Shown here one piece after another: positions 45,738 through 47,961 of a stretch of DNA of 64,000 nucleotides. The stretch lies in assembly GCF_016903815.1 (NCBI RefSeq), contig NZ_CP069973.1; one strand, written 5' to 3'. Origin of the DNA: Escherichia coli. GTDB lineage: Bacteria; Pseudomonadota; Gammaproteobacteria; Enterobacterales; Enterobacteriaceae. Below the pieces are notes generated by a model. It was given only the letters and a program-made list of their open reading frames with translations, made no database searches and was not told the origin of the DNA. Position numbers and translations under genes: made by a program. The first letter of the stretch is position 1. Every line of letters begins with the position of its first letter.

Positions 45738-47961
45738 TTTCGGACTCCAGTTGCGCAACCTGTTCTGTGTTTAAACCTGCTTTGAGTAATAGTGATTGCA
45801 TCGAAACTTGTAATTCGCGTTGAATTGTCAGGACGCGATCCAACGTTTCCTGGCTGATAACGCCTTCGGTGACCAAAAACTTGCCGAGCGGCAGAGAACT
45901 GCGTTCATGGCGCAATAACAACACGTTAATTGCTGAACGATTAATATGACCGAGCGTGGTCAGTATTTCGGCGAACAGGAACTGATGCGGCACATATTGC
46001 CGCCAGATTTCACCGGCCTGCTGTTCCGTGAGCCACTGATGCTGAACCGCATTGTACAACATTGCCCGCGGATCGTGACCGCGTCGGCGCGCATACCAGT
46101 GACGTAACCCCGTGACAATTTGTCCCCGCAGAACAATGACGTAACGCACTTTGCGTCCGACTTTACGCGTCAGGGCTGCCAGCGAAACCGGGTCAATACC
46201 ATCTTCACTGCCGACAATTAACTCATCATTTTCCAGACGCAGCGGCAGTACTGCATAATGCAGCGCCACGGAAGCCGGCATTTCGGCAATCAGTGATGAA
46301 GGGATCTGCCAGGCGTCGATCGACTCCCACGCCACGCCGTTTTGCTCTGCCAGCGCCTGTGCCAGCTGTTCGGCGCTAATCAGCCCCTGCATCAGCATTG
46401 AACCGCCCAGGCGTAGACCTTCGACGCGATTACGCAGTGCTGTATCGAGTTGTTCTTCAGTGATGACCTGATTTTCCAGCAGGATTTGACCTAACGGACG
46501 CAACGAGCGGGTATCGCCAGTCACGCTGGGGAAGTCATGCGTTGTTTTATCCCACGCGACACGACGTGGATCGCCGTGTTGAAGTACCTGTTTTAACGCG
46601 CGCCAGTTGGCCATGAAGTTAATCAGGTTGCCCCAGAAAAGACGCAGGACAGATAGCAGCCCCTGCGTCAGGCCGTAGTAGCCAGTAACGAAAATCACCC
46701 GCTGCACGATGCGGTTAATCATCAAGCCAAAGTTTAGCCACAGCAGAGTCATTAACCATGTGCTGCCGCTGAAAATAGAAAGGAAATGCCAGGCATCGGG
46801 CCACAAACTTTCATACGCCAGCAACAGCAAAAGCTAGATCATCACCAGCATCGCGAGGAAGCTGACAAAGTTACTGATTGCCCCTTTGCGGTCGCGCCAG
46901 AGAAAGTAGTTCAGCGTCAGACTGGAGGTCCATTTGTGGGTTTTAAAGCCCTGGAAAACAATGCCGATGATCCAGCGAGATTTTTGTCGAACCGCAGTCG
47001 AAAAGGTATCAGGGAAATATTCGCGCACGCAGATCATGTTTGACGTCCGCGCGTGCTGTAAAAATTTACGCTGCTCGCGTTCTTTGGCTTCGTCCACCAC
47101 CGGAAAACGGACAAAAATTTCCGTCATACCTTTTTCTTTCAGGCGGAAACCAATGTCGTAATCTTCAGTAAGACTCTGCACGTCGAAAGCAATACCGTCA
47201 CCGTCAGCTAACAGTGCGGTCACGGCGCGGCGGCTGAAACAGGTACCGACGCCTGCGCTGGGCACTTGTCCGGCGAGGGCTTCACGCACCGGAACATCTT
47301 TGCCATGCAGTTCTGAAAACTCATCAATGTAAGTCATGCTGGTGAAGTGCGTCCATTCGCGTTCGAACGGATACACCGGGATCTGAATCAGATCTTTACG
47401 CTCGACCAGATAGTTGAACAGACGCAATTCCATCGGTGAAATTACGTCTTCGGCGTCATGCAGAATAAAACCAGCAAAAGCGAAATTGGCGCTACGCTCA
47501 AACTGGGTGATGGCGTCCAGCACGTTGTTCAGGCAGTCGGCTTTGCTGGTGGGGCCAGGACGCGCGCAGACTACCTTATGCACGTTCGGGAAGCGAGCGC
47601 ACACTTCGTCAACATCACGCTGTGTATCGGGGTCGTTGGGGTAGGTGCCAACAAAGATATGATAGTTTTCATAGTCGAGCGTGGTCGCCGCCAGCTCGGC
47701 CATATTGCCGATGACGCCCGTTTCATTCCACGCCGGAACCATAATCGCTAACGGTTTTTCATCTGGTTTATACAGTTCGCGGTAACTCATTCGCGGGTAG
47801 CGGCGATAAACACTCAACTTGCGTTTAATGCGGCGTACCCAGTAGACGACATCAATAAAAAAATCGTCCAGCCCGCTGATGAACATGATGACCGCTAACG
47901 TTATCGCGATTACTTTTAAGCCGTAGAGCCAGGTAGCAAAAACATCAAGAAGCCAGTCCAC
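45724..47961 (-). pseudogene. nfrB: Family 2 glycosyltransferase NfrB interrupted by a single in-frame TAG at 46834-46836 (codon 376 of 745)
   Basis: ORFs 46834..47961 (375 aa) and 45724..46830 (368 aa) are in the same frame, separated by the TAG and one Leu codon; total 745 codons equals full-length NfrB. Confidence 0.8.

Follow-up and report, generated by a model that had tools for sequence, protein, structure and literature searches.

The nfrB gene of Escherichia coli, which encodes the glycosyltransferase of the NfrBA-YbcH exopolysaccharide system, is interrupted by a single amber codon in the 64,000-nucleotide stretch of DNA analysed here (contig NZ_CP069973.1 of assembly GCF_016903815.1; hereafter, the window). 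The locus lies on the minus strand at positions 45724..47961 and consists of 745 codons, with a GTG start, a TAA stop and one internal TAG. Judged from its sequence, it is an nfrB pseudogene created by nonsense mutation and not a functional member of the NfrB family. The nonsense allele, Q376*, is a genuine, clonally inherited marker of the sequence type 405 (ST405) clonal complex (phylogroup D, O102:H6) rather than a private mutation of one strain. Very probably, a C>T change in the ancestor of this complex produced Q376*, which was then inherited clonally, and the resulting truncated product would entail the loss of the Nfr glycan, also known as the N4 glycan receptor (NGR), and with it of a phage receptor.

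Structure of the nfrB locus and identity of the gene

Translation of positions 45724-47961 in a single frame yielded 745 codons with one internal stop, the TAG of codon 376 at positions 46834-46836 (minus strand). The ancestral codon is CAG (Gln), and the mutated base, 46836, represents a C>T transition on the coding strand. In the list of open reading frames (ORFs), the locus appears as two entries on the minus strand, namely a 375-codon ORF with a GTG start (46834..47961) and a 368-codon ORF (45724..46830) whose TTG start at codon 378 (46828-46830) was assigned mechanically. Both ORFs share one frame and, together with the stop and Leu377, make up the full gene (375 + stop + Leu377 + 368 = 745), in agreement with a first-pass annotation of this DNA, made from the letters alone, which had described a 745-codon NfrB broken by one amber codon at position 376. 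Codons 1-375 (46837..47961, minus strand) would specify the truncated product, and codons 377-745 with the terminal stop (45724..46833, minus strand), which cover further hydrophobic segments, a stretch to which no function has been assigned, and the MshEN domain, would remain untranslated.

The gene exhibits 98.2% identity with nfrB of strain K-12 (40 nucleotide differences), and the encoded proteins differ at only three positions, Q376*, A401T and V415I. When Gln376 was restored, the translation scored 1332 bits against the NCBIfam equivalog model of NfrB, NF008411 (723 positions; curated cut-off of 1170 bits), and aligned to model positions 1-722; the locus is thus nfrB by descent, as initially proposed. 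Neither fragment attained the cut-off expected of a complete product, the 375-amino-acid (aa) product reaching 785 bits and the 368-aa downstream ORF 521 bits. Moreover, the gene is 100% identical to nfrB of E. coli strain 7/2, which carries in RefSeq the flag 'pseudo, internal stop' of the Prokaryotic Genome Annotation Pipeline (PGAP). Since neither fragment reaches the cut-off and the gene is flagged in this way, we regard the locus as a pseudogene, a status that was already known for this lineage from the public RefSeq annotation. Alignment revealed that codon 376 is CAG (Gln) in K-12 and in three relatives, Nord58, CH4796 and UID2309220041. Furthermore, no reference NfrB was found to end at this position: the family model extends over 723 positions, and even the shorter, MshEN-free glycosyltransferase families related to it, whose models have 442-502 positions, can be aligned with NfrB up to about residue 480.

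In other respects the locus resembles the K-12 system, in which NfrB is a glycosyltransferase activated by cyclic di-GMP (c-di-GMP) and the NfrBA-YbcH exopolysaccharide constitutes NGR. It occupies the same locus, with the operon order nfrB-nfrA-ybcH, the 14-base overlap between nfrB and nfrA and the same Pfam and NCBIfam domains. It differs from K-12 in codon 376, where TAG limits the expected product to the first 375 of the 745 residues, and in the presence of an ISAs1/Rhs/VgrG island upstream, whereas nfrB of K-12 directly adjoins cusS. The 141 bases upstream of nfrB (47962..48102) are identical to those of K-12 and the relatives, and homology does not extend beyond them, the ISAs1/Rhs island having its edge at this point. 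Because these bases equal those of K-12, the island has caused no obvious removal of the promoter, and promoter loss through the adjacent island was ruled out as a candidate lesion. Scans for consensus promoters and terminators returned sites no more numerous than in shuffled sequence.

Position of the stop codon in the protein

The predicted 375-aa product, identical to the N-terminal 375 residues of K-12 NfrB, comprises an N-terminal membrane helix (about residues 18-36), the glycosyltransferase family 2 (GT2) domain and half of a second helix (residues 365-383). The GT2 domain was matched by Pfam PF13641 and PF13632 at residues 70-332 and 165-382, the latter interval being that of PF13632, and the DxD, TED and QxxRW motifs that define processive GT2 enzymes are all located upstream of the stop. 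The catalytic residues of NfrB have been assigned to D169, D267 and W330 (PMC8669469), and the codons of D169 (47455-47457) and W330 (46972-46974) are found on the minus strand of the window.

The stop cuts midway through the predicted membrane helix encoded by codons 365-383 (46813..46869, minus strand), which is the first one after the GT2 domain and the most hydrophobic 19-mer of NfrB (Kyte-Doolittle 19-residue mean of 2.47); its residues FVSFLAMLVMI precede the break, and QLLLLLAY, beginning with Gln376, would follow it. Weaker hydrophobic segments lie downstream of the stop, at about residues 393-452, and two putative membrane helices have been described as linking the glycosyltransferase and MshEN parts (Junkermeier and Hengge, PMC8669469). 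The first-pass annotation had placed the stop between the GT2 domain and the C-terminal region; the break is not interdomain, as it bisects the helix at residues 365-383 and PF13632 reaches residue 382.

The c-di-GMP-binding motif of the MshEN domain (NCBIfam NF053729) is encoded by codons 489-540 (46342..46497, minus strand), and Pfam MshEN matched residues 542-628. Both are coded only 3' of the stop, and the translated product is consequently not an MshEN-type c-di-GMP effector. In the PDB, PilF, PilB and MshE contain MshEN domains related to the C-terminal part, and no solved structure of NfrB was found, the PDB matches being limited to such MshEN-domain relatives. Within this part, residues L490, G491 and L537 have been functionally tested (PMC8669469, PMC8669472), and a fragment spanning residues 414-745 binds c-di-GMP (PMC8669469). 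The truncated product would therefore retain its catalytic motifs and lack the remaining membrane segments and the entire regulatory domain. NfrB shares its organization with other c-di-GMP-gated processive GT2 synthases, among them cellulose synthase (BcsA) and PgaC, in which a cytoplasmic GT2 domain with the QxxRW motif is combined with membrane helices and a C-terminal c-di-GMP module that activates the enzyme (PMC8669469, PMC8669472). It differs from them in that its regulatory module is MshEN and not PilZ, and a role of its post-glycosyltransferase helices as a channel is assumed by analogy with BcsA-type synthases.

Distribution of Q376* and direction of the change

The whole window is collinear with the genome of strain 7/2 (NZ_CP023820.1, positions 571085-635084) and differs from it at 3 bases. 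Of 5,426 complete E. coli genomes, 93 contained an exact copy of a 61-mer centred on the TAG, and the remaining 4,935 genomes that possess the region differ from it by at least one base; in K-12 that base is the C/T of codon 376. At the level of the whole gene, the 60 best matches listed and a match sampled at about rank 87 were all 100% identical, the next sampled allele being 99.5% identical, and the exact 375-aa product was found on at least 1,000 public contigs. Among the carriers, WCHEC96200 has been typed as ST405, phylogroup D (PMC5762679), YDC107 as ST964, O102:H6, phylogroup D (PMC6035167), and WCHEC4533 and Z1002 belong to a comparative genome set focused on ST405 (PMC9037040). Since the exact allele recurs over independent assemblies, and the carriers with a published type fall within the ST405 complex, Q376* is real and clone-wide. 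A literature search found no paper joining nfrB with ST405, and a broad one on nonsense alleles and clinical isolates returned nothing relevant.

Sister genomes indicate the direction of the change. In four of six fetched sister loci, the upstream gene neighbourhood is the same as in the window and nfrB differs from that of the window only by C for T at 46836. As these four alleles depart from it only by CAG at codon 376, TAG is the derived and CAG the ancestral state. In an exact-protein look-up, full-length NfrB with Gln376, T401 and I415, and otherwise identical, was located on 150 contigs; the CAG-corrected nfrB had no exact match among the complete genomes of RefSeq. Compared with the CAG sisters, the TAG lineage has fixed three further changes, namely NfrA W946R, one synonymous change in ybcH and envY L13Q, and only these, together with a YbcH S129I substitution private to the window strain, were derived with or after the stop. 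NfrA W946R (42900-42902), which affects the C-terminal part of NfrA, is derived with respect to the CAG sisters, K-12, CH4796 and UID2309220041, and its 61-mer was found exactly in 93 complete genomes.

The 3 differences between the window and strain 7/2 are all non-synonymous, being glxR M92T (13077), ybcF A135T (26962) and ybcH S129I (42379), the last of which is absent from 7/2. A second amber codon was observed in allD, the gene of the ureidoglycolate dehydrogenase of the allantoin pathway (21435-22484, minus strand), where W199* (TGG>TAG) is situated at 21888-21890. It carries the PGAP flag 'internal stop' in strain 7/2, and because its 61-mer is exact in 92 complete genomes, allD W199* is another marker of the same clone.

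The downstream genes nfrA and ybcH

Two open genes follow nfrB on the minus strand, nfrA with 990 codons (42765..45737), whose first 14 bases coincide with the end of nfrB, and ybcH with 296 codons (41874..42764). Both encode proteins that matched their NCBIfam models over the full length and above the cut-off, the 990-aa NfrA with 1877 bits (cut-off, 1223) and the 296-aa YbcH with 518 bits (cut-off, 344), and the NfrBA-YbcH system, with nfrA and ybcH intact beside nfrB in one operon, is thus present at the level of reading frames. The claim of the first-pass annotation that both genes stay intact is borne out to this extent; it has to be qualified in that nfrA carries W946R and the expression of both genes is uncertain. 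Since the nfrA start lies 14 bases before the end of nfrB, nfrA is now preceded by 1.1 kb of untranslated RNA, and with nfrA and ybcH uncoupled from the translation of nfrB behind this stretch, their expression would probably be reduced. A drop caused by lost coupling or by Rho action is plausible. Inspection of Rho loading in simple C/G-ratio windows gave an unremarkable result, with 27 of 80 windows above 1 downstream of the stop vs 34 of 81 upstream.

Proposed consequences for the glycan and for phage adsorption

The observations above can be arranged into the following sequence of events. A single C>T transition converted Gln376 (CAG) into an amber codon in an ancestor of the ST405 clonal complex, and clonal inheritance spread it. 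Translation would end after 375 residues, halfway through the membrane helix that follows the GT2 domain, and the missing membrane segments, by analogy with BcsA, would form part of the polymer-conducting channel. Because the MshEN domain and part of the membrane anchor are missing, the 375-aa product is expected to be inactive, and it would most likely be unable to insert properly, to be activated by the c-di-GMP that DgcJ makes and to export polymer. The Nfr/NGR surface glycan, which contains N-acetylmannosamine, would then not be made, and N4 and other NGR-dependent phages (Enquatrovirus, Vequintavirinae and phi92-like phages) would lose their primary receptor.

Published genetics point in this direction. 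Knock-out of nfrB abolishes the plating of N4 (PMC8669469, PMC8669472), and its deletion renders the host fully or partly resistant to Vequintavirinae and phi92-like phages (PMC8669472). A single substitution in the MshEN motif, G491L, abolishes killing by N4 (PMC8669472), and of all the MshEN mutants it lowered the efficiency of N4 plating most strongly (PMC8669469). The uropathogen UTI89, which possesses capsule and O-antigen, is infected by N4 through the same pathway (PMC8669472). From these studies, loss of enzyme function and of the glycan, with resulting resistance to N4 and NGR-dependent phages, is the most likely outcome of Q376*. No host-range data for N4-like phages or Vequintavirus on ST405 were found in the literature.

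Several considerations weigh against this interpretation. The 375-aa fragment keeps all catalytic motifs, and some residual or deregulated activity is formally conceivable. Low-level UAG readthrough could still give wild-type NfrB, as the base next to the stop is C and a near-cognate tRNA-Gln would insert the original Gln; with an nfr operon that is naturally expressed at a low level (PMC8669469), even slight readthrough might matter. With a best C/G ratio of about 1.4, the simple windows lend no specific support to Rho-dependent polarity over nfrA and ybcH. Finally, nfrB bears no further mutation in the carriers examined, which fits a recent loss and supplies no positive sign of decay.

Error, readthrough and re-initiation as alternatives

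There is virtually no chance that the TAG is a sequencing or assembly error and that the real genome has a sense codon at this position. Errors of this kind typically show up as one base that departs from the reference; yet 93 complete genomes, sequenced independently by many laboratories on many platforms, have the same base, the exact truncated product stands on at least 1,000 contigs, and the lineage markers NfrA W946R (93 genomes) and allD W199* (92 genomes) occur together with it. The recurrence of the stop across assemblies thus excludes this explanation. It is also very improbable, if to a lesser degree, that the amber codon is read through, by a suppressor tRNA or owing to its context, to an extent that provides enough full-length NfrB for a working system. 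With a Gln-inserting suppressor or a near-cognate tRNA-Gln, such readthrough would yield a protein identical to the wild type, and all three internal stops of the window (in nfrB, allD and an Rhs gene) are TAG, a coincidence that, by a rough estimate from E. coli codon usage and transition bias rather than a computation, would nevertheless be expected by chance about once in five cases. The absence of further disruptions in the downstream part of nfrB, in nfrA and in ybcH could be taken in the same sense but would be expected just as well of a young clone. Furthermore, strain 7/2, three single-nucleotide polymorphisms away from the window, has the ordinary CTG anticodon in each of its two glnV-type tRNA-Gln genes, and no supE-type suppressor therefore exists at that locus. 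The look-up for suppressor tRNAs covered two places, the glnX/glnV cluster of 7/2, with normal CTG and TTG anticodons, and the window, in which tRNA-Arg(TCT) is the only tRNA. In E. coli, UAG is generally read through at a basal rate far below 1%.

A working split enzyme, whose halves are made separately by re-initiation at TTG378 or a later start, has very little to recommend it. An in-frame TTG does occur 3 bases after the stop, with the frame open for 368 codons, and many GenBank records annotate both halves as separate proteins, as produced by gene callers; PGAP, on the other hand, treats the gene as a pseudogene. The sole Shine-Dalgarno-like match, GGTGAT, is located 10 bases before TTG378, and none lies at a useful distance from the other in-frame starts. 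In addition, the break in mid-helix would leave neither half with a complete membrane helix, and no natural homologue is split at this point, the related families being continuous to about residue 480. Re-initiation after the stop was therefore rejected, none of the in-frame starts there being preceded by a convincing Shine-Dalgarno sequence. Loss of function through clonally inherited truncation accordingly remains the explanation that we favour.

Selection, decay and independent losses

Full-length NfrB is normally subject to strong purifying selection, as deduced from 44 synonymous vs 1 non-synonymous variable sites among four intact alleles. In the window lineage, changes in the operon amounted to 17 synonymous and 11 non-synonymous, vs 210 and 51 in 29 neighbouring genes (Fisher p=0.026); this comparison between operon and control genes used only K-12 and CH4796, and the initial count of changes specific to the window lineage used K-12, Nord58, CH4796 and UID2309220041. 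We considered whether this excess reflects decay of the operon after the stop and rejected the idea. A401T in NfrB, like five of the six changes in NfrA, also occurs in the sisters that retain CAG, and most of the non-synonymous excess therefore predates the stop.

A separate issue is the cause of the mutation, and it is possible, though on balance unlikely, that the loss of nfrB was positively selected, because it allowed the bacteria to evade NGR-dependent phages or spared them the cost of the glycan, instead of hitch-hiking neutrally. Independent lesions in the pathway are consistent with selection: a close sister with intact nfrB (GCA_014079205.1) carries nfrA W483* (TAG; 8170-8172 of the fetched locus), strain Nord58, also with intact nfrB, contains a frameshift in nfrA (6725-9698 of the fetched locus), and other truncated or frameshifted nfrB alleles occur in public data, one of which ends at K343 (the next residue being W344) and is present on 123 contigs. 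In some E. coli, moreover, insertions of insertion sequences, deletions and premature stops have been reported in nfrB or dgcJ, and a fitness cost was suggested (Sellner et al. 2021, PMC8669472), which argues in the same direction. The TAG lineage is also abundant, with at least 1,000 contigs vs 150 for CAG, a figure that includes more distant alleles; such abundance in databases, however, reflects the clinical sampling of a multidrug-resistant clone. Neutral hitch-hiking of pseudogenes in the clone is exemplified by the unrelated nonsense mutation that the same lineage fixed in allD, and the non-synonymous excess of the operon (p=0.026) is mostly older than the stop itself.

Additional NfrB disruptions in public data comprise frameshifts near residues 337, 378, 435, 443 and 612, an in-frame deletion of 50 residues and a product ending at residue 703. 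From the many distinct truncated and frameshifted products, it follows that nfrB has been disrupted repeatedly in nature. Q376* resembles the known natural loss alleles of nfrB and dgcJ (Sellner et al., PMC8669472) in that a simple mutation inactivates the N4-receptor pathway of a lineage, natural or laboratory-bred; it differs from them in that a multidrug-resistant clinical clone of worldwide distribution is fixed for it. A broader proposal, that the Nfr/NGR pathway is a recurrent target of loss in E. coli, that phage escape or cost saving selected its loss in ST405 and that the clone is intrinsically refractory to those NGR-dependent phages (N4-like, Vequintavirinae and phi92-like) that are under consideration for therapy, can be put forward only as a tentative conjecture.

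Other features of the window

Between nfrB and cusS, which are neighbours in K-12, the window contains an island of about 14 kb (approximately 48159-61600). It comprises an ISAs1 transposase, a DUF4304 gene, orphan Rhs C-terminal fragments, a PAAR fragment, an Rhs core gene, a DcrB-like gene and vgrG, and relatives possess different toxin and immunity cassettes at this site. The Rhs core gene (54112-58941, minus strand; VgrG/DcrB/Rhs island) presents a TAG at codon 740 (56722-56724), annotated by PGAP as 'internal stop'. On the other side of the operon, at 40808-41691, tRNA-Arg(TCT) (argU) is followed directly by envY, and the DLP12 prophage and the ompT/appY genes that K-12 possesses between them are absent; UID2309220041 contains a different lambdoid prophage plus ompT at this argU-envY site. 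At the start of the window lies an RhsD-like core gene; just downstream of it, an IS1 copy (4075-4772) was detected, flanked by small partial ORFs and a ylbG remnant.

Implications

ST405, an extraintestinal pathogenic E. coli lineage that has spread worldwide, carries extended-spectrum β-lactamases and carbapenemases. Q376* provides a handy single-base marker of this clone, and its clone-wide spread, with the implication for the choice of phages, represents a modest practical addition that introduces no new mechanism or system. It adds one well-sampled case to the occasional discarding of a pathway that is otherwise strongly conserved. If Q376* abolishes the NGR glycan, the whole clone should resist NGR-dependent phages (in K-12, N4-like and phi92-like phages and Vequintavirinae are among them; PMC8669472), which would bear on the selection of therapeutic phages and on the prediction of host range from genomes.

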